A stretch of DNA of 64,000 nucleotides from an uncultured delta proteobacterium (GTDB lineage: Bacteria; Desulfobacterota; Desulfobaccia; Desulfobaccales; 0-14-0-80-60-11): contig CAWETI010000003.1 of the NCBI GenBank assembly GCA_963812015.1, positions 1,088,001-1,152,000 of the forward strand, written 5' to 3'. Below, piece by piece: positions 38,671-62,123 of this stretch. Position 1 is the first letter of the stretch. Every line of letters begins with the position of its first letter. The translations under genes and the position numbers were made by a program. The notes under the pieces are model-generated. The model had not been told where the DNA came from, did no database searches, and saw only the letters and a program-made list of their open reading frames with translations.

Positions 38671-38679
38671 ACAAATTCA

Positions 38680-41044: not shown

Positions 41045-41157
41045 AACCTGTTCCTTTTTCTATATTGTCACCTAACGAAAATTATCAGGCGCCGGGGCAT
41101 ATCAGCAGGATTAAAACTGCTCGATGACCCTCTTAAAGTGGTTAGCGACGCTGGCGT

Positions 41158-45082: not shown

Positions 45083-45376
45083 CTATAAATACCAACCTGG
45101 TACGCAATCCGTTCCAAAAAGTTGACCGGCTCGGGCTTCGCATCCCTCAGTTCGGGCCGGTCTGCTTTTAATCCCTAAGACCTCCCATAAATTTGGCCGA
45201 ACCGGCTCCACCTGGAAGCCGTGGAGTTCGCCAAGGAAGGTGAAGTCGATCCTGGGCAGGGTCGGCGCCGGTCCTCGAGGCAGTACTGGACGCCGGCGCC
45301 CCGCAGGACTCCGATCAGAATGAGAGGGGTAAATCAAGGGGTAAAGATGGGCATGAGTGTTGATTCTAAGAACCAT
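45083..45376 (-). CDS. Hypothetical protein
   Basis: 97 aa, AAGGTGG RBS, downstream of the primase. Confidence 0.4.
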   Translation of the reverse strand: MVLRINTHAHLYPLIYPSHSDRSPAGRRRPVLPRGPAPTLPRIDFTFLGELHGFQVEPVRPNLWEVLGIKSRPARTEGCEARAGQLFGTDCVPGWYL

Positions 45377-45391
45377 TTTTCCACCTTTCCT

Positions 45392-45502
45392 TAGTGAAGG
45401 GTAGTGAAGGGTGTGAACCTTTTTTCTATAAAGTTCCTACACGAGGGGGATATATAGGAAGTTTATGGGAATAGCGTTCACCACTATTCAAACCCTTCAC
45501 TA
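45392..45502. other. Putative iteron-type replication origin of the element
   Basis: TAGTGAAGGG x2 direct, inverted CCCTTCACTA, central imperfect inverted repeat. Confidence 0.55.
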
Positions 45503-47853
45503 AAATCCCGCAACCCAATTCCCTGCCTGACAATTGCCCCCCCTGTACCTCTTTTCCCTTCAAGCCCACGCTCCGTAAGGATTATGCCAAATGCCGTTTG
45601 ACTTAACGGTTTCTTTTCGCCGTTTTCTTCCGCCCATTTGGTATAGGCCTTGTATAAGTTTGAGGCCGGGACCGAAGCCCCCGGCGCAATGATACAGCAC
45701 TCGGCCAGAAATTCTGCCAGGGTGTCCATTTCCTGTCGGTAGGTCTGAGTCGCCTCCTGGACGGCTTGGGGAGGATTCAACCCTTGATCTTGCCAGTTGG
45801 TGCACCCCTCGATAGCCCAATTCAGGATGCCGGGAAGTTCTGCCTTGAGTTTCTCGGCGAGTTCGCGATCTCGTTCTTCTTCTGGGATTTGGACTGTGAA
45901 AGGGATCAGATGAATCCGCCGCCAAATAGCGTTGTCGGTTCCCCGGATAACCGGTTTGTGGTTTGCCGCCAGGAAAATTTTGAACTCCGGATCAAATTCG
46001 AAATGTTCTGAATAGAGGAACCGGGCCTTGATTTTGTCGCCGCCGGTCATCTGCTTAACGAGCACTTCCGCCATGCGCCGGCCTGATTCGATTTCCACCG
46101 CGGCCACAAACCGCGCCCCCCTAAGATCAGCCACATCATTTGAAATAGGGTTACTGTTCCGCTTTACCATGAAAGTTTCGCTGGTAGTCTGAGTGGCATA
46201 ATCCCCCAGAAGGGCTTGAATGACTTTTATGAAGGTGCTCTTGCCGTTAGAGCCCAGGCCATAGAGAAAGAACAGGCATTGCTCCCAGGTGATCCCAGTA
46301 AGGGCGTACCCCACAGCTTTTTGAAGGAAAAGGATGAGTTCATAGTTCCTGTTAAAAATTCTTTCAAGAAACTTCCACCAGGTAGGACATTCGGCCTTGG
46401 CATCATATACAACCTGAGCCAGCTTGGTTATCAGGTCATTCCGCCGGTGTGCCCGGAGTTCCCCGGTTCTCAAATCAATGGTTCCATTGAGAACATTCAA
46501 AAGCCAGGGGTCCTGGTCAAATTCTGTGGGCATTATCGGTATGCGGGGCTCACTTGTGGCGCTGGCTATCATGGCCTTGCGCTTGGATTCGCTTTCCGAT
46601 CTCAAGGCGTGTTGCGCCAGGGCTTCCCGCAATTCTTTTGTCTGGGTAGCCGCGGCTTCTGCATAGATACCATGAACCGTTTCCTTGGCTCGACGGTCTA
46701 TTTCTCCGGTTTCGTCCTTAATCCACCGCGTGCCATCCCAGACCAGCCATTTGCTCCACGGGTAACAGTAGCGGATATTTTGACCATGCTTAGCCACCAG
46801 GCGCTGCGCATTTCCCATGTCGGTCAGGTTGTAGCCCATGGCCGGGCCTGGGCTGGGGGCCTCATTTGCCGCCTTGTTCACCGCCGCGGATTCAGCCGGC
46901 GTGATCCGGGTGCCGTTGATCCGGCTGGCGCCGCCCCCGTAGGTTTCAGTTGTGCCAGCCAGGGCTTTGTCAATGGTCTTAACCCCGTAAGTGCTCTTGG
47001 CTGTTGCCCTGTCCCACTTCTCCCGGTAAAGGCCGCTTGCCCGGAATATGCGATCAATCTGGCCTGGGTCCTGGGTCCAGAAAGCCAATACGGAACACAG
47101 GGCCATGTCCGCCTCACTTGCGGAAGGGTAGCCGGTGATGTCGCCCACCATGAGCCGGTCAAACTTGCCGCCGTTCTGCGCTGACTTGGCCTTGGCAATT
47201 ATTTCTAAATCGGTGAGGCCAAGAGGCATGGTAGACCTGGGGGACCCCTGAGCCTGTTCCTGAGGTTCTCCAAATACTTCCCGATGCAGGGCTTCAAGTT
47301 CGGTCTGCCGGGCTTCTATCGTGGTGGGGGTGACTTCCAGGTGGCGCCCGGTCATGGTGAAGTACCGGGCGGAGTCGTACATTTCAATCTTTCCCTTGCG
47401 ATTACCGCCTGGGGGAACGCTGGCCTTGATGATAATGTGAAGTCCGGTATCGCTGGGGCTGATTTCGGTGTAGGAATCAAGGTTTCTGACGATTTCCATG
47501 GCCCAGGGTTCGACCTCCCCTGTTTTCGGGTCCCTGCATTTGTCCAGGTCCACGCCGGTGAAAGGGTCATCAGGGGAAAATTCATAGCCAATCCCGGCAA
47601 TGCCATTACCCCTGTGCGCCTCCCAATGTCGCACCGCCTGGTCAAAGTCACCCCAGGTGTCCGGATCATCCGCCTTGGCGTTGTCGCCGGTCTTAGGGTT
47701 CACGGGAATCTTGTTCGACCGGTAGCACACCCATTGTGGCCGGTCCTTTAATTCCTGGGGTATTTTGTCAAGGTCAGGGGCCGCCGCCAGGCAACCGCCG
47801 CCAGTCACCCCCCGGTCTTGGGCAGGGGCGCCGCCAACTACACCGGGCCGCAT
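45484..47853 (-). CDS. Phage/plasmid primase-helicase, P4 family (AEP primpol, D5_N, SF3 helicase)
   Basis: GVDLDKC and EISPSDTGLH (primpol); TDMGNAQR, LNVLNGTIDLRTG, GLGSNGKST, KQMTGGD, AIWRR. Confidence 0.92.
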   Translation of the reverse strand: MRPGVVGGAPAQDRGVTGGGCLAAAPDLDKIPQELKDRPQWVCYRSNKIPVNPKTGDNAKADDPDTWGDFDQAVRHWEAHRGNGIAGIGYEFSPDDPFTGVDLDKCRDPKTGEVEPWAMEIVRNLDSYTEISPSDTGLHIIIKASVPPGGNRKGKIEMYDSARYFTMTGRHLEVTPTTIEARQTELEALHREVFGEPQEQAQGSPRSTMPLGLTDLEIIAKAKSAQNGGKFDRLMVGDITGYPSASEADMALCSVLAFWTQDPGQIDRIFRASGLYREKWDRATAKSTYGVKTIDKALAGTTETYGGGASRINGTRITPAESAAVNKAANEAPSPGPAMGYNLTDMGNAQRLVAKHGQNIRYCYPWSKWLVWDGTRWIKDETGEIDRRAKETVHGIYAEAAATQTKELREALAQHALRSESESKRKAMIASATSEPRIPIMPTEFDQDPWLLNVLNGTIDLRTGELRAHRRNDLITKLAQVVYDAKAECPTWWKFLERIFNRNYELILFLQKAVGYALTGITWEQCLFFLYGLGSNGKSTFIKVIQALLGDYATQTTSETFMVKRNSNPISNDVADLRGARFVAAVEIESGRRMAEVLVKQMTGGDKIKARFLYSEHFEFDPEFKIFLAANHKPVIRGTDNAIWRRIHLIPFTVQIPEEERDRELAEKLKAELPGILNWAIEGCTNWQDQGLNPPQAVQEATQTYRQEMDTLAEFLAECCIIAPGASVPASNLYKAYTKWAEENGEKKPLSQTAFGIILTERGLEGKRGTGGAIVRQGIGLRDFSEGFE

Positions 47854-47855
47854 GA

Positions 47856-48080
47856 TTAAAAACCCGGCGGCGTGACGCGGTTGGCTTCCATTATCGATAG
47901 AACTTCCGGGAGATAGTACCGGACGGATTTACCGATTTTTCGGTAAGGAAATCCGCAACCTTTGGACCGATCATTTCTGAGGGTTTGAACGGCGCGGCCG
48001 GTAAGGGCGGAAACTTCCTGTTCAGTGATGTAACGCTGGGATTTCAGGTCGGAGGGCAATTCTCTGATATTGGCGCTCAT
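47856..48080 (-). CDS. Excisionase/AlpA-like HTH protein
   Basis: ITEQEVSALTGRAVQTLRNDR..G.GFPYRKIGKSVRY. Confidence 0.85.
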   Translation of the reverse strand: MSANIRELPSDLKSQRYITEQEVSALTGRAVQTLRNDRSKGCGFPYRKIGKSVRYYLPEVLSIMEANRVTPPGF

Positions 48081-48324
48081 TTGACTTTCTCCTCGTGGAA
48101 AGTAGGATCATCGAGAGGTCCCTCCTTCTGGCCGTTTTGGCTGGCGTGGGCTCCCTACTCTACACACGAAGCAAAGTCAAACATTTTAGCGCCGGTGGGC
48201 GCATCCTGATTTCGGTTCAGGACGAAAACCGTAATACCAAGCTATTAACTTTTCTACCACATTGTACCCTTAAAGTCAAGTGGAAACAGGCGATACCCGT
48301 AACTTTCGCGCTGTCAATTAACCG

Positions 48325-49464
48325 TTATTTCTTTTTCCTTAAATTCGCCACCTGGGAGATACGGCTGTTCATGGCCTGGCCTATCAAGTCCCCCGCCAGA
48401 TCGGAGGCCCGGCGTAGGGTAGCATCGCGCAAATGAGCATAGCGCATCGTCATGGCGGCGCTCTTGTGTGTCAACAGCTTTTGCAGGGTGTAGAGGTCCA
48501 CTTCGCCCGATGATGCCAGCATCGAAGCGAAAGTATGCCGCAGACCGTGGAGGGGCCGGAAGCCATTGGGGAGTTCAGCCGCTTTTCGTATGCGGTCAAT
48601 AGGCCGTCTGATCTCAACTCTTTGGCCCCCGCCACGGCCAGGGAACACGAAAGGCGAGTCGGTTCTCGGATGATTCTCTAAAATATTTCTGGCCGATTGA
48701 TTTAATGGGATTGTCTGATCTTTGCCGCCCTTGGGGCTGATGATATGGATAAAGTTCTTCTCGAAATCAATATCATCCCATTTGAGTTTGAACAGTTCGC
48801 CCCTGCGCATACCAGTTACCAGGGCCATCTTCATAAAATTACCGGCATGGATGTCATGATCTTCATTAATGGCGGTCAAGAGGTTCGATAGCTGCTCCGG
48901 GGTTAAATCCTCAGTTCTGAGGTTATTTACTCGGGGAAATTCGATCTTAAACCCCAGGCCAGGGGCCAAACCTTTCTTGATTCCGAAATTAACAATCCGT
49001 TCAACTAATTCCAGAACATTCTTGACGGTCTTGGCGCTCAAGGTCTTGGATAAGTTAATCCTCAGCCGGTGTACCATGATTTGGGATAGGTCTTTGGGTT
49101 CTTTGGCCCCAAAAGTGGCTTGTAAGAATTTCTGATAGCGATAACGATCTGTTCTGAACCCCTTGGTATCGGGCTTAGGTCCGATGTACTCTTGCCAAAG
49201 CCGGTCAATGGTCCACTTGATAGCCGTCGCTTCTTCCCGGCGCTCCTTATTGCTGGCGGCACCTTCAATGCGTTTGGTTCGCTCCGCCGCCGCCCTTGCC
49301 GGGGTCATGTCGTTTTGATATTGCCGGCCAACTTTTTCCTCAATCAAGCGGCCATCACGGCGATACATGATGTAGTAAATCTTCTCTGGTCTGCCATTAC
49401 TGGCCTTTCCCATAATAAAATAGACCCCTGGATAATTCGTTTTCTCACGATCTGTCTTAGGCAT
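48325..49464 (-). CDS. Tyrosine recombinase (phage integrase)
   Basis: TGMRRGE, HGLRHTFAS, LLTHKS, TMRYAH catalytic set; adjacent to attR. Confidence 0.96.
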   Translation of the reverse strand: MPKTDREKTNYPGVYFIMGKASNGRPEKIYYIMYRRDGRLIEEKVGRQYQNDMTPARAAAERTKRIEGAASNKERREEATAIKWTIDRLWQEYIGPKPDTKGFRTDRYRYQKFLQATFGAKEPKDLSQIMVHRLRINLSKTLSAKTVKNVLELVERIVNFGIKKGLAPGLGFKIEFPRVNNLRTEDLTPEQLSNLLTAINEDHDIHAGNFMKMALVTGMRRGELFKLKWDDIDFEKNFIHIISPKGGKDQTIPLNQSARNILENHPRTDSPFVFPGRGGGQRVEIRRPIDRIRKAAELPNGFRPLHGLRHTFASMLASSGEVDLYTLQKLLTHKSAAMTMRYAHLRDATLRRASDLAGDLIGQAMNSRISQVANLRKKK

Positions 49465-49612
49465 AGCGTCCTCCAGCCCCCAACAATATCCCCAACATCT
49501 GAGTTAATTTTAGGCGTATTTTACGGTATGTCAAGGGAAAAGATAAATCGCTAAATGCTTTTAGATAAAGGAGTTTTAGATGGTCATGGTAAATGGTGGT
49601 AAATGTATAACC

Positions 49613-49662
49613 CCGGGTTGTGGCCCCGGCGGTCGCGGGTTCAAGTCCCGTCGTTCACCCCA
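49613..49662 (+). repeat. attR: duplicated 3' half of tRNA-His
   Basis: CCGGGTTGTGGCCCCGGCGGTCGCGGGTTCAAGTCCCGTCGTTCACCCCA identical to 38621-38670. Confidence 0.95.
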
Positions 49663-49814: not shown

Positions 49815-50639
49815 TCAATGGGAGTCATCTGCTTCAAGAGGAGGGCTCCCCTGGGATGCCTTGCGCCTTTTCCAGAGCCAGCCGGCGATGGGAATGATGA
49901 TCCCGGCCCACAGCCACTGTCCGAACTTTTCCCAAAATTCCGTGACCTTCTGGCTCCAGGATACGTTTACTTCAATAATCTTATCAAAAGTGCGGATCGT
50001 TCTCGAGGTGGGCTGCCCTTGAACGGTAAACTTGGCGCTCAAAGTCAAATGGAGTTTTTGACGACCAGGCTTCAGGGGCTTGGCTTCCCAGGCCCATTTA
50101 GTCACGTCCTCGGAAGTTATTACCTGGGTTTCGGGGGTGACGGTTTGAATTTGAAAATGGGGGCCTGATAACCGAGCCTCCATTTGGTTGGCAACCTTGA
50201 TGCTCTCCCCTTGTTTCTCACCCTCGGCTTCGATCATCTGCTTCAATTCTTCGACCGGCTTGCTCAAGCTGAGGATAAGTTGAATCGAGGCCGTATCCTC
50301 GAGACCGATAGCAGTAGGGGCATTGAAAGCAATATTGCCCACCGGCAATTTTTCTAGAATGCGGTCAATAACTTTGAACTGGCCTAATTGGGCAGCAGGG
50401 CCCCCACGAGTCACATCTTCGTCGGGAGGCTCTGGAGGAGGCGTCACTGGCGGCCCTGGCTTGGCGCTGATTTTTGCCGGCGGTGGTTCAGAAGGTGGCC
50501 CGCACCCCAGATACAAAGCCGGTCCGGCCAGGAGCACTAACAGGATAACACCACCTATGCGGAACCAGGTTCCAACTCTCGGCTCTTTCCCAGTTTTCTT
50601 ATCCACGGATGCCCCCTTTACCAAACCTGAGGTTTGCAA
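49815..50639 (-). CDS. Hypothetical membrane-anchored protein (Pro-rich linker, beta-rich domain, C-terminal TM)
   Basis: N-terminal hydrophobic segment ending YLGC, PPEPP linker, C-terminal WLWAGIIIPIAGWLWKRRK. Confidence 0.7.
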   Translation of the reverse strand: MQTSGLVKGASVDKKTGKEPRVGTWFRIGGVILLVLLAGPALYLGCGPPSEPPPAKISAKPGPPVTPPPEPPDEDVTRGGPAAQLGQFKVIDRILEKLPVGNIAFNAPTAIGLEDTASIQLILSLSKPVEELKQMIEAEGEKQGESIKVANQMEARLSGPHFQIQTVTPETQVITSEDVTKWAWEAKPLKPGRQKLHLTLSAKFTVQGQPTSRTIRTFDKIIEVNVSWSQKVTEFWEKFGQWLWAGIIIPIAGWLWKRRKASQGSPPLEADDSH

Positions 50640-50759: not shown

Positions 50760-53537
50760 TTATTGGCCATCGCCAAAAACCACCAGTGGGGCCCAATAGA
50801 ACGGATGGCGGTATTTATCGCCTTTCTCGCCCCGGAGCAGGGCCAGTTTGATTTCTCGCAGGGCAGCAGCCCGGCCTAATTTTTGGCTGAGATAGCGATA
50901 GGTGCCCACGTTTAGCTCTTTGGCGGATTGCGATTCAACCGACCACAGGGTGACGCAAACCGCCGGGGTTCCGGAATACATGAAGGCCCGGGTCAGGCCC
51001 ATCACCCCTTCGCCCTTGACTTCGACGCCCCGCCCGGTGTTGCAGGCGGACAGGGATACCAGATCGGCATTGAGCTGGAGACCAAAAACGTCCGCCATGG
51101 TCAGGTAGCCGTCTTTTTCCGGGTAAGACAGGACCAAGGCCGGTTGCACGATGCGATCCACTTCTCCCGGCAGGATACCATGGCAGGCGAAGACCAGATA
51201 CCGATAATCCCGAAGTTTAACCGCCTGGTTCAGACTGAGAACCGTGCTCCGGGAGGCGGCCTCTTTGACGAGCAGGGGGTTGCTTTGCTCCGGAGCATGG
51301 AGCAGCTCCTTGATGGCCTGGGCCTCGCCTTCGGTTTCCGGCAATTCCGGAAAAGTCCCCCCGGCGATCTCGCGATAGGCGCGAGTCTGCAAACCGCTGA
51401 TAGATTTATCATCCCCCTGGTTTTCGGGGCATTCCTCATAACGCGGGTTGGCAAAGGCCAAGAGGGGATAGGAAGGTCGGGCCTGCCTCCGGGCCTGGAC
51501 TTCCCGCAGAGTTTTGAGCAGCGAGGCTGAGGACAGGTAAGCGATGGGATAATCTTCCACCAGATAGCGGAGGGGCTGGCCGGGGGCTTGGGTTTCGAGG
51601 GCCTCAAAAGGGAGAGAATACAAGGGGCCCGTGGGAATGATATAGAGGGTGCTGCCGGGGGCCAGACTCGCTCGAATGGAGGCGGGAACGAGCAAGGGGT
51701 ACATCTCTTGCCGGAGTTTATCCCGCTCTTCCGGGCTGGCGCCCTGGCGCATCTTCCCTCCCTCATCTTTGGTTTTCAAAACCGTGCTCCGGTAGGCTGC
51801 AATCTTCCGGCTCAGGTCCTCCTCCCCGATGGGCAGCGTCTCCAGCCGGAAGACCTCTTTACCGATTACCCAGAGGCAGGTCTTATCTTGCATGACGCCA
51901 TAAATCAGCAGGACCTCCCCCGGTTGCAGCACCTGGGTCTGCAGTTCCTCCGGCTTGGCGGGTTGGGGATATTTCAGGGCATAGTAGTCGGGGTATTTGG
52001 TTTGGAGTTCGCCTTTCAGGGTCTGGAGGGCCTCTCTCGTCTGCTGTAATTCGGTTTCCAGGATTTGTAGGCGCTGCGGGTCCGGCTGGGGTTGCGACCG
52101 TTCTTTTACCAGGGTGACCTGGACCTCGTCCAGGCGATTTTCCAGCGCGGTTTCCTGGCTTTTCACCTGCTCGGGGAGGCCGGCGAATTCACGGGCGCCG
52201 CTCTGGCCCATCTCCTCCAGAAAGAGACGTCCTTGCTTGCGCTCAAAGATCTCGAGGGCATCCCGGTCATAGCCTTTCGTTGGATCCTGTTCATGCAAAG
52301 ACCTTAACAGCTCGATTAATTCGTCATAGACAAAAAGCTTATTCTTTATGTAGGTGGACTTGCTTTGCTTGTTGCCCAACCCGGCCCGCAGGCCTTCGAT
52401 GGTGCCCAGGGCCTGCCGGTAATGCTCGATGGCTTCGCCATAGCTTGCCAGATTAGCTTCGACCTGGCCCAGGGCACGCTGCACCCGCCAGAGGTTTTCC
52501 GGATGGCCTACCTCAAGGGAGATCTTCAGGCTCTCCTGCAAGGTCTTGAGGGCCTGGTCATGCTGACCTAACTTATCATAGAGCAAGCCCAGGCTGGTCA
52601 GATCCCCCCCCTCGTCAAGGCGATCCTTGATCTCCCGATAAATGGTCAGGGCTTGCTGGTGACATTCCAGGGCCCGTTCATACTGACATAAGGCATAGTA
52701 CACCTCGCCCAGGTCGGTCAGAGCCTGCCCCTGGCCCCGGCGAGTCTTGATCTTCCGGTGGATGGCCAGGGCCTGCTGGTAACATTCCAGGGCCCGTTCA
52801 TACTGACCCAGGTCATAGTAAACTTCCCCCAGGTTGATCAGTTCATTTCCCTCAAACCGGAGGTCCTTGGTCTGCCGGTGGATGTCCAGGGCCTGCTGAT
52901 GGCACTCCAGGGCCTGGTCATACTGACCTAAGCGATAATATTCAACACCCAGATTCCCCAGAGCCTGCCCCTGGCCCCGGCGATCCTTGGTCTGCCGGTG
53001 GGTGTCCAGGGCCTTCTGGTTAAACTCCAAAGCCTGATCATACTGACCTAAGTTCCAGGAGACCAGACCTAAGTTGCCCAGGGCATAGCCCTCACCCCGG
53101 AGGTCCTTGATTTCCCGGTAGATGTCCAGGGCCTGCTGGTGATGCTTTAGGGCCTGGTCATACTGATTTAGGTGACGATAGGCCACCCCCTGATTATTCC
53201 GATCATTGCCCTCGCCCCGGAGGTCCTTGATTTGCCGGTGGAGGTCCAGGGCCTGCTGGTGATACTCCAAAGCCCGGCCATACTGCCCTAAAGCATCATA
53301 GGCCAGCCCCAGGTTGCCTAAAAAATCGGCGCTGGCTTGCTGGTTTTTGGCTTTTTTAGCCAGATCCAATCCCTGTTGCCATTTGACCAGGGCCTGGTGA
53401 TAATTGGCGCCATCGTAGGCCCGTTGGCCTGCCTTCGCCAGCCGATTCATATCGGCCTTGTCAGCCCAAGCGACCTGACAAAAACCAAGCACGCAGACAA
53501 CCCAGAGTAACGCTCCTATAGTCCATCGTAAATCCAT
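50760..53537 (-). CDS. TPR-repeat and CHAT (caspase-like) domain protein with signal peptide
   Basis: FACHG and LSACNTG dyad, HPFYWAP; ~40-aa TPR repeats visible as a 120-bp DNA period at ~52540-53320; start ATG 53537 after GAGGG. Confidence 0.92.
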   Translation of the reverse strand: MDLRWTIGALLWVVCVLGFCQVAWADKADMNRLAKAGQRAYDGANYHQALVKWQQGLDLAKKAKNQQASADFLGNLGLAYDALGQYGRALEYHQQALDLHRQIKDLRGEGNDRNNQGVAYRHLNQYDQALKHHQQALDIYREIKDLRGEGYALGNLGLVSWNLGQYDQALEFNQKALDTHRQTKDRRGQGQALGNLGVEYYRLGQYDQALECHQQALDIHRQTKDLRFEGNELINLGEVYYDLGQYERALECYQQALAIHRKIKTRRGQGQALTDLGEVYYALCQYERALECHQQALTIYREIKDRLDEGGDLTSLGLLYDKLGQHDQALKTLQESLKISLEVGHPENLWRVQRALGQVEANLASYGEAIEHYRQALGTIEGLRAGLGNKQSKSTYIKNKLFVYDELIELLRSLHEQDPTKGYDRDALEIFERKQGRLFLEEMGQSGAREFAGLPEQVKSQETALENRLDEVQVTLVKERSQPQPDPQRLQILETELQQTREALQTLKGELQTKYPDYYALKYPQPAKPEELQTQVLQPGEVLLIYGVMQDKTCLWVIGKEVFRLETLPIGEEDLSRKIAAYRSTVLKTKDEGGKMRQGASPEERDKLRQEMYPLLVPASIRASLAPGSTLYIIPTGPLYSLPFEALETQAPGQPLRYLVEDYPIAYLSSASLLKTLREVQARRQARPSYPLLAFANPRYEECPENQGDDKSISGLQTRAYREIAGGTFPELPETEGEAQAIKELLHAPEQSNPLLVKEAASRSTVLSLNQAVKLRDYRYLVFACHGILPGEVDRIVQPALVLSYPEKDGYLTMADVFGLQLNADLVSLSACNTGRGVEVKGEGVMGLTRAFMYSGTPAVCVTLWSVESQSAKELNVGTYRYLSQKLGRAAALREIKLALLRGEKGDKYRHPFYWAPLVVFGDGQ

Positions 53538-53649
53538 GGTCATCCCTCGTGCATGGAACAGTAGCCCTAGGCCCCTCGACCGACAACCACGTACGGGTCC
53601 TCTTTCAGGAGACCTATGACGGCGTCGCGGATGGTTCCCCCAAACGCCT

Positions 53650-54771
53650 TCATGCAGAGTACGGCTCGGCTCGGACAATCCGTTGATTAATTATCGGTTC
53701 GAGGTATTTTTCGATTAACCCCTTCTTGGCCTGACACCATTCGCTCTTATGGCGGAACGATCCCCCGGCGAACCACCCATCCAAGGGGCAGCCGCCGTGG
53801 CAGATATCCCAGAAACGACATCCCTTGCACGCCGTTTCCGGAAGGACCACAAGGCGGCGCCGGAGGGCCTCCCTCTGGGGATCCGCAAAAATCTGAGAGA
53901 ACGATTTTTCGTGGATCGAGCCATAATCCAGCAGCCCACAATCGGCCGAGCGGCCGCAAAGGGACGCACTGCCATCCGGCAGCACCGCCAGATGGCTGTC
54001 CGCGCAGGCGCCCGCGTCGGTGCAGATCAAATACTTGCGATCCCCAACCAGGTTTTCTGTGAGAGAAAAAAACGGCTCGATGCGCCCGAACTCATGGCGA
54101 TGCCGCCACCACACGGGGAATATGGTCCCCAGGAACTCTGCATACTGGTTCGGCGTAATTTTGATGTGGTCCAGTCCGCAGCCGTGCACGAGGACCGGGT
54201 TAAACATGAGCCCTCGTTTGGGTGACAGATTGGTGAGGAAATTGAATATCTCCAACGGCTTCGCCAGAGATCGCTGCGTCACCACATAGATCACTCCCCA
54301 AGTAAACCCTTCGTCCTCCAGGAGGCAGATTGCGTCCAGGAAACGTTGATTATACGTTTTCCAATCCCGGTTTTTCCCCAGGCCGCGCGTGTTGCCGATG
54401 GGGTCGTAGCTCGTGCCGATGTGCGTGACCCCCAGTTTTCTCATGGGATCAAGGAATTCCCTGGAGAGCAGGGTGAGGTTACTCTGGATTGAGTGCCGGA
54501 TGCGGCTGACGGTGCCTGAGCAATGTTTTTCCTGATAGTGAAGAGCCCTGGCGAAATAGCGGGGGCCGAGGAGAAGAGGCTCCCCACCGTGCCAGATGAT
54601 CTCCAGGTCTTCCTGGGGCCGTTCGAGCAGGAACTCGTTGACGCGCCGGAACAATAATTCCAGGGTCTTGAAGGTCATGTGCTTCGGACCACGGGTCTTC
54701 TTCTTAACGACCTCGCAGTATATGCACCTCGAATTGCAGGCCTCCGTGGGTTTGAAGATCAAGGTTGCCAT
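53650..54771 (-). CDS. Radical SAM/SPASM maturase-like enzyme
   Basis: CNSRCIYC, WHGGEPLL, QSNLT; SPASM CKGCRFWDICHGGCP...C. Confidence 0.9.
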   Translation of the reverse strand: MATLIFKPTEACNSRCIYCEVVKKKTRGPKHMTFKTLELLFRRVNEFLLERPQEDLEIIWHGGEPLLLGPRYFARALHYQEKHCSGTVSRIRHSIQSNLTLLSREFLDPMRKLGVTHIGTSYDPIGNTRGLGKNRDWKTYNQRFLDAICLLEDEGFTWGVIYVVTQRSLAKPLEIFNFLTNLSPKRGLMFNPVLVHGCGLDHIKITPNQYAEFLGTIFPVWWRHRHEFGRIEPFFSLTENLVGDRKYLICTDAGACADSHLAVLPDGSASLCGRSADCGLLDYGSIHEKSFSQIFADPQREALRRRLVVLPETACKGCRFWDICHGGCPLDGWFAGGSFRHKSEWCQAKKGLIEKYLEPIINQRIVRAEPYSA

Positions 54772-55628
54772 ATACGGCGTTCCTCCTGGGCAACCTGCAA
54801 AGCCAGGCGCTGGCGAATCAGATCAATCAGGTCCATGAAAAATTCGGAACATCCGGGCTTCCGGGTGAGGTCATCCGAGAATTTCCCATGACAAATCTTC
54901 CAGCCGGCACAGGAGGCACAGGGATGGTTGTCGGCGAAGTAATGTTTCCACGATTGCAGCCGCTCCCGGATCGGCGGAAATTCCTCCGGCGTGCCGATTT
55001 CACTAAGGCGGTGGGCCACGAACCGCTTCTCGTCCAATTCCGCCTGGGAAAGGGCGACACGGCCAGCTTCGTCGAGATGCAGGAAATACCGGGGATCATC
55101 AAAGGTGACGCGGCCCCAGTCGATGTACTGGGAAGAATGGTAGTTTGCCGCCATGAAGACAAAAGGCTCGATGGCGGCGTGGGGCACCCGTCCCAGGAGA
55201 GCGTAGGTCGCTAAATCGGCCAGGGATTCCCAATCCGTCCTGCCAGGCCTGAAATCAGCGCAACAATGTATGCCTACTGACGACAAGATCCTTAAACTTG
55301 CAAGGTTGTCGGGGTGGTCGCAAGGGAGATAGACTCGTAGGCTGAGATTACGCAGCCTGTCAAGATGCTTCGCCAGGTGGCGGAAATGCCCTAGCGAAGG
55401 GGCCATGACCGCCAGGGGGATGCCTTGGCGGTGGTCATCGAGTTCAATGTCGGCCAGGGGACGATCCGATTCCACGATAACACCATTAAGGGTGTTGCCG
55501 GACTTCCAGACTTTTTCCACGCCTGGCCCGATGTGATCGCAACTCTTCAGCCTCAGGGTCACAGAGAACCCCGTGAAACTCTGCAGCAAACTATCGCTAC
55601 CTGGGCAGACGATGGTTGGAAATCCCAT
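54759..55628 (-). CDS. SPASM-like Cys-cluster protein lacking the radical SAM CxxxCxxC motif
   Basis: C-terminal CASCAGWKICHGKF...C; overlaps both neighbours. Confidence 0.7.
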   Translation of the reverse strand: MGFPTIVCPGSDSLLQSFTGFSVTLRLKSCDHIGPGVEKVWKSGNTLNGVIVESDRPLADIELDDHRQGIPLAVMAPSLGHFRHLAKHLDRLRNLSLRVYLPCDHPDNLASLRILSSVGIHCCADFRPGRTDWESLADLATYALLGRVPHAAIEPFVFMAANYHSSQYIDWGRVTFDDPRYFLHLDEAGRVALSQAELDEKRFVAHRLSEIGTPEEFPPIRERLQSWKHYFADNHPCASCAGWKICHGKFSDDLTRKPGCSEFFMDLIDLIRQRLALQVAQEERRIWQP

Positions 55629-56628
55629 CCTCGCCCCCCGCATGCCTTATGGGCGCCTCGTCGATGACGCCACCGACGATCTGGCACAACCCCCCGCCGC
55701 CGCACCCTCCATCCTCCTGGGAACGGCAGCCATCGCATTCTTCGAAGCTGCCGGCGATCTCCGCCTTGATTGCGTCGCGCAGCCGCGCAAAATGTCTGTC
55801 GATCTGCTCCATGGTATCGAACTCGAACAGGGACTTTCTTTGATAATCGGCGAGAGGCAGGCAGTGATACACGGTCATGTCCGGCGATATGGAGAGGGCC
55901 GGCCCGCACCCGAAAGGGGCATGACCCCTGGAGCGGTGTAGCCATCCGAGTTCTGCATCGCTGAACCTGCACAGGGGAAATCCGCAGCCGAGGCGCAAGC
56001 GGACGCGATGGGCATCGAAAAGATGACGGTGGGAATAGAGTCGCTCAACGACCCGCCTCATATCCTGGGCAGGGATGAACCCGTCCTGACTGCCGGGGAC
56101 AGGATGGGCTAGGCCGAGACGCATGTTCCGCTTCAGGTGGAAACGGCTTAGGTAATCGAACAGGAAATCAAGGGTAAAATCCAGCCGCTGGATGTCGAAG
56201 GCCGCTTGCGTCCATGGTCCCATGACCGTGAGGAAACCCTGCAATCTTGCCGTTGCTTGCGGCGCAGCCGGGGTTTGAACCGGGTCATTCAGGTTGCATA
56301 CCCAATTGAGCCGCTCGATGGGCACCTCAGCGAGATGACGCTCGAACGCTTCGAGGCGGGACGGGCTCAGCATCCCATCGGTGAAAACCGTCACGTCGAA
56401 ACCACGATGGAGCAGGTAGAGGATGAAGTCGATGCAGTGCGGGTGAACCGTCGACTCGCCTCCCGAGAGGGATACCCGCCGGTGGCCAGACGCCCAGAGA
56501 AAATCCGCAATGTAGATGAGATTCTCCCAGGACAACGACTGGCTGCCGGGGGCCACTGGCATCTCGTTCCTGGCGGAGCAAGGGGGGCAATAGCGGTGGC
56601 AGGGTGAGGTCAGCAGTATGTTCGCCAT
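55597..56628 (-). CDS. Radical SAM/SPASM protein, partly degenerate motifs
   Basis: CHRYCPPC, SGGES, FTDG, CGFPLC, CGPALSI...HCLP, CDGC...CGGGGLC; start ATG 56628 after GGAG. Confidence 0.8.
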   Translation of the reverse strand: MANILLTSPCHRYCPPCSARNEMPVAPGSQSLSWENLIYIADFLWASGHRRVSLSGGESTVHPHCIDFILYLLHRGFDVTVFTDGMLSPSRLEAFERHLAEVPIERLNWVCNLNDPVQTPAAPQATARLQGFLTVMGPWTQAAFDIQRLDFTLDFLFDYLSRFHLKRNMRLGLAHPVPGSQDGFIPAQDMRRVVERLYSHRHLFDAHRVRLRLGCGFPLCRFSDAELGWLHRSRGHAPFGCGPALSISPDMTVYHCLPLADYQRKSLFEFDTMEQIDRHFARLRDAIKAEIAGSFEECDGCRSQEDGGCGGGGLCQIVGGVIDEAPIRHAGGEDGISNHRLPR

Positions 56629-56758
56629 GGTCGTCGTCTCCGATGGCACACATCACCTTATTACGGGACGGCCAACGAGGCGTTCCCGACGGAGGAGCCG
56701 AACCATAACTACCTGCACTAGGAGGTATAGTGTTTCAGATACTGTAAGTGCTCTACTA

Positions 56759-56959
56759 TTACTTTGGCGCTGAATCGCCGTATTGCTCCTTTACTATATC
56801 GGAGTAGGGGCTCTTCTTCGCCGGGCAGATAATCCCTGCGACGACTACGATGCCTACACCCGCGAGACCGGCGGCGATCCGTTTCATGGCCGCACGCCTG
56901 GTCAGAAATTCATCCTGCGTGGCTGCCGGTGAATCTTTGCTGTGCTCTTTCTTGGACAT
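56759..56959 (-). CDS. Small peptide with twin-arginine-like leader and YxD motifs (candidate RiPP precursor)
   Basis: AAGGAGG RBS; LTRRAAMK, hydrophobic stretch, then YSD...YGD. Confidence 0.75.
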   Translation of the reverse strand: MSKKEHSKDSPAATQDEFLTRRAAMKRIAAGLAGVGIVVVAGIICPAKKSPYSDIVKEQYGDSAPK

Positions 56960-57508
56960 GGTTGTTCCTCCTTTTAGCTATCTCTGGAAGGCGGAATTCT
57001 TATGAGATGTTTGATAGCATAAGCTTTTTTGAAAATCAATAATTTACTTCCAAAGGAGGACACGGCCAGGTGGATGCGTCGGGCCCGGCCGGGTGTACAA
57101 GAGAAGCTGACCGGTCAGAGAGCTAAAGAATTTGATTACCAGGCCGCGGCCCGGGAAAGAACCCAAGGCCCGAGCCCGGACCAGGCGCAGCGCCTCAAAT
57201 CTTATCCTTTTTCGCATTAAGTCATTATCTCCATTATTTTTATTAGAGATGGATGCGGTTCCCGGTTAGCCAAGGCGGGTTTCATGGGCATGGGGGAATA
57301 TCGCCTCCCTAAGACCCTTAGGGGAACAAAATGGCGCCTCGGCGGACTCGGAAGGCGAAATTTAAATTAACCAATGTGCAATTCAGCGTTAATTGGTATA
57401 ATAACCTTATGTCAGGAATGTTTGATGAGAGAGGCGCGGGAGAAAAGCCTGGCGACCGGCGGTTTAGGGCATACTAGTTGAGATTAATAAAAAGTGAAGG
57501 TGTTAAGC

Positions 57509-57871
57509 ATGAACAGGATTGCCGTGACGAGTGAAGGTCCCTCACTGGACGATCAGGTCGACCCGCGCTTCGGCAGGGCCGCCGGCTTCGTGGTCGTGGA
57601 CCTGGAAACCATGGATACCCAATACATTGATAATGGCCAGTCCCAGGCGATGGCTCAGGGGGCCGGTATCCAGGCCACGGAGCTGGTGGCCCGGGCCGGT
57701 GTGAGCTGTCTGCTCACCGGTTACGTCGGTCCCAAGGCCTTTCAGGCCCTTTCTGCCGTCGGCATCAAGGTGGGGCAGAACCTGGAGGGGCTGACCGTAC
57801 GCGACGCCGTGGAGCGGTTCAAGCGCGACCAAGTCGAAATAGCTCAAGCAGCCAACCGGGCCGGACGATGA
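57509..57871 (+). CDS. NifB/NifX-family (FeMo-co biosynthesis domain) protein
   Basis: VDPRFGRAAGF, GAGIQA, GYVGPKAF. Confidence 0.88.
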   Translation: MNRIAVTSEGPSLDDQVDPRFGRAAGFVVVDLETMDTQYIDNGQSQAMAQGAGIQATELVARAGVSCLLTGYVGPKAFQALSAVGIKVGQNLEGLTVRDAVERFKRDQVEIAQAANRAGR

Positions 57872-58746
57872 TCGTTGCCGTGGCAAGTGGCAAGGGCGGC
57901 ACCGGCAAGACCACGGTGGCCGCTTCCCTGGCCGCTATTTGGGATGGACCGGTGACAGGCGTGGACCTTGATGTGGAAGAGCCCAACCTGCATCTCTTTC
58001 TCCATCCGGCCATTGCCGGGAGCGAAATGGCCCAGATGACGGTGCCGACGTTGGCAGAGTCAAAATGCACTTACTGCGGCGCCTGCTCGGAGCTTTGCCA
58101 GTTTAAGGCCATTAGTGTAATGGGCCGGCTGATTTTAATCTTTCCCGAGATGTGTCACGGCTGCGGGGGCTGTATCGCCGTGTGCCCTGAAAAGGCGCTC
58201 TCGGCCGGAAAGCGGGAGCTTGGAGAAATCAGCTGGGGCCGGGCCGGCGGCGCGGGTTTTCTTGCCGGACGGCTGCGCATCGGCGAGGCCATGAGCCCGC
58301 CCCTGATGCGCCGGGTGAAGGCCAGGCTGGATCAGATGCTGGCACATGGCGGGGATGCCATCATCGACGCGCCGCCGGGGGTGAGTTGCCCGGCGGTCAA
58401 TGCGGTGATGGACAGCGAGGTGATTCTTCTGGTTACCGAGCCCACTCCCTTCGGCGTCTATGACTTTAAGCTCGCCTGGGAAGCCTTTACGCCACTGGAA
58501 AAACCCATGGGGGCCGTGATAAATCGGGCCGGACTGGGCAATGATGCCATTTACCGGTTCTGTCAGGAGAAGGGGCTGCCGATTCTGGCCGAGATCCCTT
58601 ACGACCGGGCCATCGCCGAGGCCTATGCGCGGGGCAGGATCATCGCGGACCTAAGCCCCGGGTTCAAGGAGACCTTTGTCACTCTGCGGGATAAGATTCG
58701 CGGCCTGGCGAAACCCGGCCGGTCCCGGGAGGCCGCCCATGCGTGA
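57868..58746 (+). CDS. MinD-like P-loop ATPase with 4Fe-4S ferredoxin insert (COG1149)
   Basis: SGKGGTGKTT, DLDVEEPN, CTYCGAC..C, CHGCGGC..CP, DAPPG, EPTPFG. Confidence 0.88.
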   Translation: MIVAVASGKGGTGKTTVAASLAAIWDGPVTGVDLDVEEPNLHLFLHPAIAGSEMAQMTVPTLAESKCTYCGACSELCQFKAISVMGRLILIFPEMCHGCGGCIAVCPEKALSAGKRELGEISWGRAGGAGFLAGRLRIGEAMSPPLMRRVKARLDQMLAHGGDAIIDAPPGVSCPAVNAVMDSEVILLVTEPTPFGVYDFKLAWEAFTPLEKPMGAVINRAGLGNDAIYRFCQEKGLPILAEIPYDRAIAEAYARGRIIADLSPGFKETFVTLRDKIRGLAKPGRSREAAHA

Positions 58747-59617
58747 GATCATTATCATCAGCGGCAAGGGGGGCACGGGCAAGACCTCGCTGACCGGAGC
58801 CTTCGCCCATCTGGCCAGTAACAAGGTCATCTGCGATCTTGACGTGGACGCTCCGGATCTGCACCTGCTGGTCGAGCCGACGAAAGAACGCCTGGAGGAA
58901 TTCTTCTCGGGGCATGAGGCTCAGATCGATGGCGAAAAATGCGATGGTTGCGGTTTATGTGCCTCTCTCTGCCAGTATGGGGCGATTCGGGAGAATGGCG
59001 CAGGTTTTGCGGTTGACCCGGTGCGCTGCGAGGGCTGCAAGGTCTGCGTGGTATTTTGCCCGGCTGCGGCCATCGGGTTCCCCGAGAAACATTGTGGCCA
59101 ATGGTACGTCTCATCCACCCGCTTCGGCCCCCTGGTCCATGCCCAGCTCTTTCCGGGCGCCGAGAACTCGGGCAGGCTCGTTATGGTTCTTAAGCAACAA
59201 GCCCGGGAACTGGCCAAAGCCCGGGGCGCCGATCTGGTGTTGTGCGACGGCGCCCCAGGTATCGGCTGTGCGGTGATCAGCTCGCTGTCGGGGGCCCACC
59301 TGGCGGTGGCGGTCACGGAGCCCACGCCCTCGGGGCGACATGACCTGGAGCGGGTTGCGGCTCTCTGCCGACACTTTCAGACGGCCTTTGCGGTCATCAT
59401 TAATAAGTATGACCTCAATCCGGACGAGACCGCCCGGATCGAAGTCTTTTGCCATGGCGAGAGTTATCCGGTGCTGGCGCACCTGCCCCACGATTCGCTG
59501 GTTACCAAAGCCATGATCCAGGGTTTGGTGGTAACCGAGCTGCCCGAGTCGGATTTTAGCCGTGAGCTGGGCCAGGCCTGGAGCCGGATCGAGGCACTGG
59601 CCGGCCTGGGCCGGTAG
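58739..59617 (+). CDS. Second COG1149 P-loop ATPase/ferredoxin paralog
   Basis: SGKGGTGKT, DLDVDAPDL, CDGCGLC..C, CEGCKVC..CP, ENSGRLV, EPTPSG. Confidence 0.88.
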   Translation: MREIIIISGKGGTGKTSLTGAFAHLASNKVICDLDVDAPDLHLLVEPTKERLEEFFSGHEAQIDGEKCDGCGLCASLCQYGAIRENGAGFAVDPVRCEGCKVCVVFCPAAAIGFPEKHCGQWYVSSTRFGPLVHAQLFPGAENSGRLVMVLKQQARELAKARGADLVLCDGAPGIGCAVISSLSGAHLAVAVTEPTPSGRHDLERVAALCRHFQTAFAVIINKYDLNPDETARIEVFCHGESYPVLAHLPHDSLVTKAMIQGLVVTELPESDFSRELGQAWSRIEALAGLGR

Positions 59618-59728
59618 GGAAGGCCGCGGACAGAGAAGATTTTAGCAAGATAGCTTGAAGAGCTGCTGACGCCAGGTTTTGCACCATTAAGGCAGGATAC
59701 ATTTAAAAGCACCTTAAGGAGAATATCA

Positions 59729-60121
59729 ATGAAGAGTATGCTTGTTGCAATTCCCTCAACCCATCCCGGGGGACTTGAGGCTGCGATTGGAGCGCATTTC
59801 GGCCACTGTGACCTCTACACCCTGGTGAAAATCGCTGAAGGCCAAGTGCTGGAGGTCACCACCTTGCCCAATGTTCCACACCAGCAGGGGGGCTGCATGG
59901 CCCCGGTCAACCACCTGGCCCAAAACGGCGTGCAGGTCCTTATCGCCGGCGGCATGGGCATGCGGCCGCTCATGGGGTTCAATCAGGCGGGAATCGACGT
60001 CCTGTATGGTAACGGCGCCCAAACCGTGAGCCAGGCAGTGGAGGCGCTCTTGAACGGAACCTTGACGCGTTTTACCACCGAGTTCACCTGCGGCGGCGGT
60101 GGTGGGGCTTCACAGATGTGA
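59729..60121 (+). CDS. NifB/NifX-family protein
   Basis: AHFGHC, HQQGGC, GGMGMRP. Confidence 0.85.
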   Translation: MKSMLVAIPSTHPGGLEAAIGAHFGHCDLYTLVKIAEGQVLEVTTLPNVPHQQGGCMAPVNHLAQNGVQVLIAGGMGMRPLMGFNQAGIDVLYGNGAQTVSQAVEALLNGTLTRFTTEFTCGGGGGASQM

Positions 60122-60213
60122 AGGTCCTGGCGGACCTCGGGACTCGGAGCTCAAGGAGCCGATGGCGGCCTGGTTCCGGGTTCCGAGAGCCACGTTTGCT
60201 GAGAGGTGAATCC

Positions 60214-60588
60214 ATGCTGCACATCGTTCTCGCCACCGCTCGACCTAAAGCAATGCAGGCCTTCGCCGAAGCTCTATCCTCAAACCCGGAGGTGAACCTT
60301 CAGCAGGTCATCTCCGGTGCCGAGGCCCTGGAAGCGGCGCGCACCGCTGCCCCCCATCTCGTGATTATTGATGCTGATCTCCCGGACACCGCGCCTTTGG
60401 ATCTCGTCCAGAAGCTCCTCATGGTCAATGCCATGGTGAATACCGCAGTGGTCAGTTCACTTTCCGACGAGGAGTTCCACGAGGTGAGCGAAGGCCTCGG
60501 GATTCTTGGCCGGCTGCCAAACGATCCCAAGAGGAGCGATGCAGGCGAACTGCTCCACAAGCTCAGAACGGTGCTCGGGGTTGGATGA
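60214..60588 (+). CDS. CheY-like receiver-domain protein
   Basis: SGAEALE..PHLVIIDADLPD; GAGGTG RBS before ATG 60214. Confidence 0.7.
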   Translation: MLHIVLATARPKAMQAFAEALSSNPEVNLQQVISGAEALEAARTAAPHLVIIDADLPDTAPLDLVQKLLMVNAMVNTAVVSSLSDEEFHEVSEGLGILGRLPNDPKRSDAGELLHKLRTVLGVG

Positions 60589-60713
60589 TTGCAATGAGGC
60601 TCACAGTACCTGCTTACCGTGACGTTGCAGAAAAAATAGCTTATAGCTTGCCATATTGGGACGTTTGAAGCGGCAGGGTGAAGTGGCGATATGAAATGAA
60701 TGGGGAAGGATCG

Positions 60714-62123
60714 TTAGATTTTAATAGTCTGGTGCAGGGCCGGGACCATGACCCTCCGGTAACCCAAATCATCGCGCAGCCGGGTGGCCAGTACCTGGGC
60801 CGCGTCCGGCTCGCCGTGCACGACAAAGGTTTGCTCCGGGCGCTTCTTGAAGGCCTGCGCCCAACTCAAGAGGCCCGGCTGATCGGCATGGCTGCTGAAG
60901 CCATTCAGCGTAACCACTTCAGCTTCCAGGTGGTATTCCATCCCAAAGATCCTCACCACCGGCGCATGTTCCACGAGGCGGCGGCCCAAGGTATTGGGGG
61001 CCTGCCAGCCGACAATCAAGACCGTGTTGCGGGGGTCCTCGATATTGTTTTTTAGATGGTGTTGGACCCGCCCGGCCTCCGCCATGCCGGAAGCGCTGAT
61101 AATCACGCAGGGGCCTCTGAGGGTGTGAAGTTTCTTGGACTGTTCCACGTCCTGGATGTATCGCAACCGCTTGAAGCCGAAAATATCGCCATCCTGGTCT
61201 AGCTGCCGCAGATAGTCCCGGGTTTCGTCATCGAAATATTCCGGATGCCGGCGAAAAATGCCAGTCACGTTGACCGCCAAAGGACTGTCCACATAGATAG
61301 GGATGTCAGGCAGGTCGCCCTGGTGGTAAAGCTGGTTCAGGAGGTATACAAGAAGCTGCGTGCGTTCGACGGCAAAGGCTGGAATGATGACCTTGCCCCC
61401 CCGGGCGCTGGTGCGTCTGATCGTCTGATTGAGAACTGCCGCCGACTCCTCCAGGGGTGGGTGGGTCCGGTTGCCATAAGTGCTCTCGATGAGCAGGATG
61501 TCGGCGGCCGTAAGAATGGTGGGGTCGCGCAAAATTGGCAGGTGAGGCCGGCCCAGGTCGCCGGTAAAGACCAAGCGCTGGTTGGGCCCGCCATGCCCCA
61601 TCGGGAAATCGAGGACGACGATGGCCGAGCCCAGCATATGCCCGGCATCGTATAGGGTTAACGTGACGCCCGGTCCCAGACGATATGGCCTCTCATATTC
61701 AATCCCCTCAAAATACTGCAGTGCCTCAGTCGCGTCTTCCTGGGTGTAGATGGGCTCGACCGGAGGCTCGCCATGCTTCCGCCGCTGCCGGTTGACATAC
61801 TCCACGTCTTCTTCTTGAATATGGCCGCTATCGAGGAGCATGGCGCCGCAGAGGTCAGCCGTAGCCGTGGTGCAAACAATCTTGCCCCTGAAGCCTTGTT
61901 TCACCAAGTTAGGGATATTACCCGAATGATCAATGTGCGCGTGAGACAGCACCACCACATCAACGGCCGCGGCATCGAAGGGGAACTCCCGGTTCCGTCT
62001 CCGGGCCTCCTCGCGCTTCCCCTGATACAGGCCGCAGTCGAGAAGAATATTCTGCCCGTTCACCGCGAGCAAATGCTGAGAACCGGTTACCGTCTGGGCT
62101 GCCCCGTGAAAACTGATCTGCAT
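60714..62123 (-). CDS. MBL-fold beta-CASP ribonuclease (YSH1/COG1236-like)
   Basis: VTGS, SHAHIDHSG, AGHMLGS, ESTYG, PAFAVERTQ, FSSHAD, VHGE. Confidence 0.92.
   Translation of the reverse strand: MQISFHGAAQTVTGSQHLLAVNGQNILLDCGLYQGKREEARRRNREFPFDAAAVDVVVLSHAHIDHSGNIPNLVKQGFRGKIVCTTATADLCGAMLLDSGHIQEEDVEYVNRQRRKHGEPPVEPIYTQEDATEALQYFEGIEYERPYRLGPGVTLTLYDAGHMLGSAIVVLDFPMGHGGPNQRLVFTGDLGRPHLPILRDPTILTAADILLIESTYGNRTHPPLEESAAVLNQTIRRTSARGGKVIIPAFAVERTQLLVYLLNQLYHQGDLPDIPIYVDSPLAVNVTGIFRRHPEYFDDETRDYLRQLDQDGDIFGFKRLRYIQDVEQSKKLHTLRGPCVIISASGMAEAGRVQHHLKNNIEDPRNTVLIVGWQAPNTLGRRLVEHAPVVRIFGMEYHLEAEVVTLNGFSSHADQPGLLSWAQAFKKRPEQTFVVHGEPDAAQVLATRLRDDLGYRRVMVPALHQTIKI

Follow-up and report, generated by a model that had tools for sequence, protein, structure and literature searches.

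The closest described relatives of the locus reported here are peptide-maturation systems built on radical S-adenosylmethionine (rSAM) enzymes. Triceptides are defined by an aromatic-X-X pattern (PMC11499958), and the synthase YxdB forms a C3(Tyr)–Cβ(Asp) bond (PMC11002830). The report on the His-Xaa-Ser (HXS) system HxsA–D describes two rSAM enzymes and a helper that act on a repeat-motif protein while it is still in the cytoplasm, export to the periplasm coming afterwards; a stable HxsB–HxsC association was not detected there (PMC13128918). A report on Bacteroidales clusters places a pseudo-rSAM protein (IPR026418) beside active rSAM enzymes, a precursor and sometimes a glycosyltransferase, and offers the partnership of the pseudo-rSAM protein as a hypothesis only (PMC10352776). 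Here, we describe a cassette on the minus strand (positions 53650–56959) of a 64,000-nt contig stretch from an uncultured delta proteobacterium (the window), consisting of a 66-aa precursor peptide and three proteins, A, B, and C. It is a real, conserved, and apparently undescribed variant of rSAM peptide maturation, whose chemistry we infer. The cassette resembles triceptide pathways in chemistry and HXS in logic and, judged by profile models, belongs to neither.

The precursor (56759–56959) is preceded by a Shine–Dalgarno sequence, AGGAGG (56967–56972), read from the sequence 7 nt upstream of its ATG. The open reading frames (ORFs) of A (55597–56649), B (54759–55643), and C (53650–54771) follow, with overlaps between A and B and between B and C; alignment to relatives moves the likely true starts of A and B to 56628 and 55628, yielding proteins of 343 aa (55597–56628) and 289 aa (54759–55628), next to 373 aa for C. 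The first-pass annotation of this DNA, made from its letters and ORFs, had described a 66-aa peptide with strong ribosome-binding site, TRR.AMK leader, hydrophobic stretch, and YSD and YGD motifs, followed by three overlapping genes and, on the same strand after C, a protease with TPR repeats and a CHAT domain, and each of these elements was recovered. Its proposal of an undescribed Tyr-directed family outside any named class also agrees with our results: no named NCBIfam model was matched, only the generic SPASM domain model passed its NCBIfam cut-off among the parts of the cassette, for C, and Y-x-D is conserved in relatives. Among the papers listed by a full-text literature search, with most subscription journals outside its reach, none described the cassette; the family could sit unnamed in supplementary networks such as the triceptide landscape of Sugiyama 2022 or the atlas of Clark and Seyedsayamdost. 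Contigs from sequencing run X1, which is possibly the source sample and not independent, equal the window between 49700 and 57200 except at one intergenic base, so that the unusual residues of A described below are unlikely to be consensus errors. A scan for promoter-like sites upstream of the peptide found none, with counts at the level of shuffled sequence.

Triceptide pathways (YxdB, YhhB, ChlB, XyeB, GrrM/OscB, FxsB/MscB) share with the cassette their aromatic-X-X cores, Y-x-D included, and an rSAM/SPASM enzyme that lacks a RiPP (peptide made on the ribosome and modified after translation) recognition element and is akin to C. Some have TPR genes nearby, and the HaaT and FxSxx TPR models match only the TPR repeats of the CHAT protein. 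However, C falls below every synthase cut-off, scoring 43–90 bits against the named models (AmcB, YhhB, FxsB, GrrM, XyeB; cut-offs 310–450 bits), as do four further family members, and the cassette differs by two additional rSAM-fold proteins, a twin-Arg hydrophobic leader, a glycosyltransferase of family GT9 that comparison marks as ancestral, and an operon without ABC exporter. HXS, in turn, was reportedly once assumed to be triceptide-like. Against HXS models, C reaches 59 bits for HxsB (cut-off 370) and A at most 21 bits for HxsC; the motifs here contain Tyr instead of His, the window core has no His, and the helper is a whole pseudo-rSAM protein rather than the small HxsD. PADLOC returned generic viperin and TPR matches only, none of them specific to HXS. 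The precursors of the Bacteroidales pseudo-rSAM clusters, whose system models we take to be TIGR04148/TIGR04150, carry a double-Gly leader. The leader of the present cassette is of a different kind, its glycosyltransferase is a GT9, and even with E values of up to 1 admitted, no NCBIfam pseudo-rSAM model matched any of the 46 B sequences.

The precursor is built from an N-terminal region, a leader motif of the form RRxA[LIM]KR[IM]A, a Gly-rich hydrophobic stretch, and a short polar core. In the window peptide, the motif reads TRRAAMKRIA (residues 20–29; 56873–56902) and is followed by 17 hydrophobic residues; the core holds Y52-S53-D54 (56798–56806), where Tyr is replaced by Phe or Cys in three close relatives, and Y60-G61-D62 (56774–56782), the most conserved site of the clade. 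The peptide matches no Pfam or NCBIfam family and is present as a single copy in its genome, which contains only this one gene with an RRxAxKRI-type leader. A six-row profile, with the 8000 best candidates scored, retrieved at least 80 homologous clade peptides, in which Y-x-D occurs at 152 of 183 Tyr residues and Y-x-[DN] at 161, compared to 24.7 ± 4.5 (maximum 39) in 2000 shuffles; this enrichment overstates the significance, because YGD was already part of the search profile and the peptides are related to one another. Y-x-[DN] is present in 76/80 cores, bearing out the expectation that the enzymes stand beside a conserved upstream peptide with repeated Tyr motifs, and the four matches without it indicate that the leader alone is able to retrieve a peptide. 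A leader profile gave 82 matches on family loci, 77 of which fit the leader pattern as we defined it. We compared 50 non-redundant cores outside the clade and outside the lasso-type hybrids described below, after dropping one doubtful match and another two in which the core-cutting pattern was absent. These cores consist of 26% Tyr and 19% Ser, the +2 position after Tyr is Ser, Asn, or Asp in 562/888 cases (280 ± 11 in 500 shuffles), and enrichment of Tyr–Tyr spacings peaks at 3 and 6 (spacing 3: 388 versus 240). A read-through or truncated peptide was rejected, as an 86% identical relative is also 66 aa long and peptide and A are separated by nearly the distance seen in locus L001. A lipoprotein was likewise rejected, the Cys after the hydrophobic stretch varying between Cys, Gly, Ser, and Arg in the clade. 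Loci L109 (2078–5140), L110, and L111 carry arrays of up to five precursors, some with cores of 80–110 residues that are near-pure Y-Y-R, Y-S-R, or Y-Y-N repeats, and P0450 and P0451 join an RRxAxKRI-type leader to Cys/Pro-rich cores without Tyr.

Protein C, listed as a second rSAM/SPASM protein in the initial annotation, is an intact enzyme of this type from the neighborhood of anSME, DynA, DarE, and the triceptide synthases, and the probable cross-linking catalyst: it contains CxxxCxYC, GGEP, and eight conserved SPASM Cys, and the motif is intact in all 63 full-length family members. Its best NCBIfam models are DynA (135 bits, cut-off 450), anSME (132, cut-off 349), DarW (111, cut-off 650), and DarE (101, cut-off 650), all far below their cut-offs, and the cassette has neither W-x-W nor a sulfatase substrate motif. 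By analogy with triceptide synthases, C probably joins Tyr and Asp, and a Tyr to Asp Cβ cyclophane is the best inference for its product. The closest PDB match, anSME (E 3e-14; ChlB, E 1.3e-10), together with the rank of the anSME model and the frequent Ser after YGD (70 of the +3 positions), would fit a formylglycine-forming enzyme of the anSME type that acts on Ser, for example in YGDS, or on a sulfatase. We regard such an activity as very improbable. Where anSME has Asp277, the Asp after the AuxI Cys that we take to be the catalytic base, C has Gly273, conserved and followed by a conserved Arg; the +3 position is equally often Ala or Lys, and the 132 bits compare to a cut-off of 349. DarE, too, has anSME as its nearest relative but forms cross-links (PMC10288494).

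If C acts on Y-x-D, it might still form something other than a C–C cyclophane: a Tyr-O to Asp-Cβ ether, a reaction at Tyr-Gly (oxidation or excision), or an addition of carbon resembling the +8 Da obtained in the HXS system (PMC13128918). We assign such chemistries a minor but appreciable share of the probability, as the near models of C, DarE/DarW and DynA, also make C–O and C–N links (PMC10288494) and YG is the commonest Tyr context of the clade (117/183). Three observations speak against these chemistries: (i) across the family, the +2 position is far more constrained than +1; (ii) some family cores, e.g., in L013 and L067, lack any YG; and (iii) Phe replaces Tyr in two relatives, a change incompatible with an O-link. 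Two further readings, splicease (Tyr-Gly) and Y-x-x-Y biaryl formation, were set aside, since neither motif is universal in the cores.

Protein A requires a correction of the initial annotation, which had listed it as an rSAM/SPASM protein. Fold and SPASM domain agree with this assignment (Pfam Radical_SAM, E 1.2e-8, above cut-off; fold match to anSME with Z 21.2), while the SAM site is not canonical: window A reads CHRYCPPC/GGES/TDG where the family has CNRSCPYC/GGEP/T[NS]G. The three Cys in CxxxCxxC register and GGE are kept; the aromatic residue before the third Cys has become Pro, GGEP has become GGES with Ser in place of a Pro invariant in 120/120 canonical members, and the Asp84 of its clade occurs in 0/120 of them. 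From 192 A sequences, removal of 21 N-truncated gene calls and 18 duplicates left 153, comprising 120 with canonical motif, 32 without, and the window protein with three Cys but no aromatic. In a FastTree phylogeny of residues 33–334, built without the Cys loop and with the GGE and TNG sites included, window A falls into a clade (support 0.979) whose 32 members all lack the canonical motif, made up of the window protein, 30 scorable losses, and one truncated call; a single loss (P0346) lies outside. Between 0 and 3 Cys of the motif remain, depending on the branch, as expected after release from selection. All eight SPASM Cys are kept in window A, and in 31–32 of the 32 clade members.

Window A would thus be a recent probable pseudo-enzyme and the predicted partner of B, and because it sits in a clade that lost SAM catalysis, only C is probably catalytic in the window copy. 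That window A is nonetheless an active rSAM enzyme which adds a second modification, as its three Cys in register, its Radical_SAM score, and its complete set of SPASM Cys might suggest, we consider improbable: CxxxCxxC is lost in 30/30 scorable clade relatives, window A carries the altered residues listed above, and conservation of the SAM loop drops to 0.56 in the clade from 0.85 outside.

Protein B has no Pfam or NCBIfam match. Its AlphaFold2 model (pLDDT, the predicted local distance difference test, 89) matches the rSAM/SPASM fold over its whole length, in agreement with Foldseek, with ChlB (Z 13.4, root-mean-square deviation (rmsd) 4.2, 265 residues aligned), anSME (Z 13.3, rmsd 3.8, 261 aligned), and CteB (Z 12.4) as matches. 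CxxxCxxC is found in 0/46 aligned rows, in line with the earlier description of B as SPASM-like without SAM-cluster motif, and four C-terminal Cys (242, 245, 251, 265) are invariant and form the cluster motif CxxC-x5-C-x13-C. B is an ancient pseudo-rSAM protein that probably keeps one auxiliary cluster. A and B are predicted to bind as a heterodimer: complex prediction gave a score of 0.83 (best of three controls 0.00), with at least 97% agreement of contacts between runs and partner pLDDT of at least 83. The score mark is reached by 116/157 solved complexes and 2/215 mismatched pairs, and is approximate here, as our own alignments were used; the score may also reflect the model's memory of rSAM dimers. 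The A interface residues W34, D42, F43, D67, L70, Y71, and R75 are 100% conserved in the dead-A clade, and interface conservation exceeds that of the remaining protein in both clade A (0.87 versus 0.75) and B (0.74 versus 0.64). The predicted pairing with a conserved interface offers a reason for the retention of a dead A, and it provides a specific, well-scoring model where PMC10352776 had only hypothesized a pseudo-rSAM partnership.

With B as family marker, clustering at 90% gave 106 homologues, and at 50% identity (E up to 0.001) the family comprised 316 clusters. Neighborhoods were taken from the best 80 of 136 metagenome loci and from genome searches, and the resulting 113 loci collapsed to 87; a scan of genome contigs with one protein query found one locus. 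Gene order is fixed: among non-redundant loci with enough flank, A directly precedes B in 76/77 and C directly follows B in 76/79. Close relatives are labeled Desulfobaccales, distant ones Armatimonadetes or Syntrophorhabdus. B occurs in 15/401 genomes of the phylum, 5/83 of the order, and 2/18 of the genus (window genome counted), a patchiness that marks the cassette as accessory. In distant variant L106 (G194:C26), C directly follows A and a weak B match lies further downstream. Loci L059 and L107 carry a second, divergent C between C and GT9, placing four rSAM-fold genes in a row, and second C-like matches occur in L043, L077, L080, and L089. L001/L103, a long-contig assembly, shows a frameshift near the C-terminus of both B and C that may be sequencing error.

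Of the 47 loci with at least 2.2 kb of downstream sequence, 39 contain a GT9 domain (Pfam PF01075), four a CHAT gene, and four neither; GT9 occurs as a fusion with either C or B, or as a gene of its own after C. Comparison across the family shows an ancestral cassette that would have comprised a precursor rich in Tyr, the rSAM proteins A and C, the pseudo-rSAM protein B, and GT9. By the same comparison the window clade appears derived: a secreted TPR-CHAT protein replaced GT9, the core shrank to Y-x-D, and the SAM site of A decayed, with the remainder of A retained. In sister locus L004/L101, CHAT is present, GT9 is not adjacent, and A is intact, suggesting that the swap of GT9 for CHAT preceded the decay of A. 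A family-type GT9 was absent from the window's genome in our search, with weak matches only (best E ~1e-9) in G000, G412, and G428, the genomes G412 and G428 being 70% and 75% complete. The best PDB match of the family GT9 is the ADP-heptose lipopolysaccharide heptosyltransferase II (E 1e-4). Its alignment (A4) contains four invariant C-terminal Cys (250, 256, 269, 276), which suggests a metal site; the heptosyltransferases Aah and TibC, which bind iron, offer a parallel. In L036, a PfkB plus cytidylyltransferase gene (9968–11665; HldE-like ADP-heptose synthase) adjoins GT9. An extra 400-aa gene with a conserved DDD/DDY motif lies between precursor and A in L008 (4689–5879), L009, L010, L015, L016, L018, L024, L033, and L104; it has no Pfam match and, through an Atlas lead to a cluster with 32% Glycos_transf_2, is possibly a second glycosyltransferase.

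Three closely related loci without C (L030, L070, L105), counted as one event, combine the RRxAxKRI leader, A, and a B–GT9 fusion with a precursor whose region after the leader motif has a mean hydropathy of 0.06–0.08, compared to 2.2–2.6 in the window clade. That segment is presumably a lasso-type leader, to judge by its motif. L030 (1187–8815) encodes an ABC transporter, PqqD plus Transglut_core3, and Asn_synthase, and L070 shares these three genes; lasso genes were read in these two loci only, and the window has none. The hybrid cores also lack any Y-x-[SDN]. Loss of C together with this motif, and retention of A, B–GT9, and leader, suggest two separable modules: A, B, and GT9 would read the leader in a way not tied to export, and C would require Y-x-[SDN]. 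These loci look like lasso clusters that absorbed A and B–GT9 under a chimeric two-part leader, and are candidates for glycosylated, rSAM-tailored lasso peptides. Together, the full GT9 cassette, the C-less lasso hybrid, the GT9-less locus with intact A, and the GT9-less locus with dead A form a natural series in which the modules appear separable.

Since the hybrids keep the leader without hydrophobic stretch, the leader is not merely an export signal; it is probably an enzyme-recognition tag as well as a Tat-like (twin-arginine translocation) signal. The Tat-like leader with hydrophobic stretch noted at the outset is present in the window peptide and in its clade. Compared to the consensus S/T-R-R-x-F-L-K, the window leader keeps the twin Arg and has Ala in place of Phe, its hydrophobic region has a Kyte–Doolittle mean of 2.59, and the genome encodes TatC; the Pfam and NCBIfam Tat models gave no match to the precursor. 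An Arg at +4 after the twin Arg is conserved, a partly circular result because the pattern required Ala and Arg. By eye, many distant precursors carry AxA or lipobox-like sites, and the window precursor shows neither.

Taken as a whole, we favor, with slightly better than even confidence, the view that the window cassette is a stripped-down member of an undescribed rSAM peptide-modification family, with A–B as scaffold, C forming a cyclophane, and export by Tat. In the cytoplasm, the A–B pair would recognize the RRxAxKRI leader and serve, without catalysis of its own, as scaffold or electron relay. C would then abstract the Asp Cβ hydrogen and couple this carbon to the ring of the Tyr, so that each Y-x-D becomes a cyclophane of three residues (−2 Da per site), at up to two sites of the window peptide. 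The modified peptide would be exported by Tat and either remain anchored by its hydrophobic stretch or be released. With 66 aa, two Y-x-D, and one probable catalyst, it offers the simplest way into a family that numbers at least 316 clusters. Provided that Tat export holds, the cassette would connect rSAM cross-linking with peptides displayed on the envelope, as HXS connected it with phage defense.

Several points weigh against this view. The reaction type of C is extrapolated, because C lies far below all cut-offs and is nearly equally close to anSME and DynA. The three Cys of window A remain in CxxxCxxC register, and at Tat position +2 the leader has Ala instead of Phe. Four GT9-less loci (L039, L042, L046, L078) still carry an intact A, so that loss of GT9 alone does not account for the decay of A. 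Stand-alone CHAT orthologues with 63–67% identity occur in G244, G409, and G446 (completeness 99, 98, and 81), with no RiPP genes nearby; B was not found in these three genomes. Pairwise dN/dS in the clade (dS ~0.5) is 0.96 for the SAM loop of A, against 0.36–0.39 elsewhere in A, a difference that favors decay of the SAM site; the loop value, though, comes from 18 codons and 10 non-independent pairs, with an intact comparison group of saturated dS. B (0.34) and C (0.23) also have higher dN/dS in the clade than in the comparison group (0.22 and 0.14), and the raised values could mean general relaxation.

These raised values, with the loss of GT9 and of the A motif, the short core, and the patchy presence in the order, might also mark the operon as a decaying remnant of a GT9-type cassette that yields no modified product. 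We judge this outcome quite unlikely: all frames are intact, dN/dS stays at 0.23–0.39 outside the loop, Y-x-D is strongly kept, as are the motif of C in every full-length member and the predicted A–B interface. A wider reading, which we put forward tentatively and hold to be rather doubtful, would make the family a widespread class of cell-envelope glyco-cyclophane peptides with two separable modules, in which C cross-links Tyr-x-[S/N/D/R] and the A–B heterodimer with GT9 performs a radical step coupled to glycosylation. In the window clade, A–B would then be a doubly dead scaffold that retains Fe–S and recognizes the leader on behalf of C; the product with its Y-x-D cyclophane would control, or be released by, a periplasmic TPR-CHAT protease. 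If true, we would be seeing a pseudo-enzyme in the making, whose intact, partly decayed, and fully decayed stages could be compared.

The TPR-CHAT protease (50760–53537, minus strand, in an ORF listed as 50760–53678; Pfam CHAT, E 1e-64) has intact His/Cys motifs and a signal-like N-terminal segment. Each of the six non-redundant clade loci whose sequence extends far enough has it directly after C, at differing chromosomal sites. It is a recruited secreted protease in the place of GT9, with a putative link to the peptide. It may well be a passenger, if at less than even probability; release of the peptide core is a plausible role that we would not bet on, and binding of the core as a ligand seems unlikely. 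Three further TPR-CHAT paralogues (~28% identity) lie on contig C2 of the genome. An uncharacterized 274-aa membrane- or lipoprotein-like ORF (49815–50639, minus strand) without Pfam or NCBIfam match is possibly the last gene of the operon; a 67% identical homologue follows CHAT in L004/L101, and not in L001 or L006.

An 11-kb element bounded by tRNA-His copies (38595–38670 and 49589–49662) occupies 38595–49662 and encodes a tyrosine integrase (48325–49464), a P4-type primase (45484–47853), and a type ISP/IIG restriction-modification protein (41158–44235). Location of the operon inside this element was rejected, as it sits just outside. Upstream, on the opposite strand (57494–62123), we find ORFs named by eye as NifB/NifX-like, two MinD-type 4Fe-4S ATPase-like, response-regulator-like, and metallo-beta-lactamase-fold. 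Elsewhere in the genome (G000:C3:1996807–1999009), a tandem pair of other rSAM/SPASM genes encodes proteins 31% and 24% identical to C.

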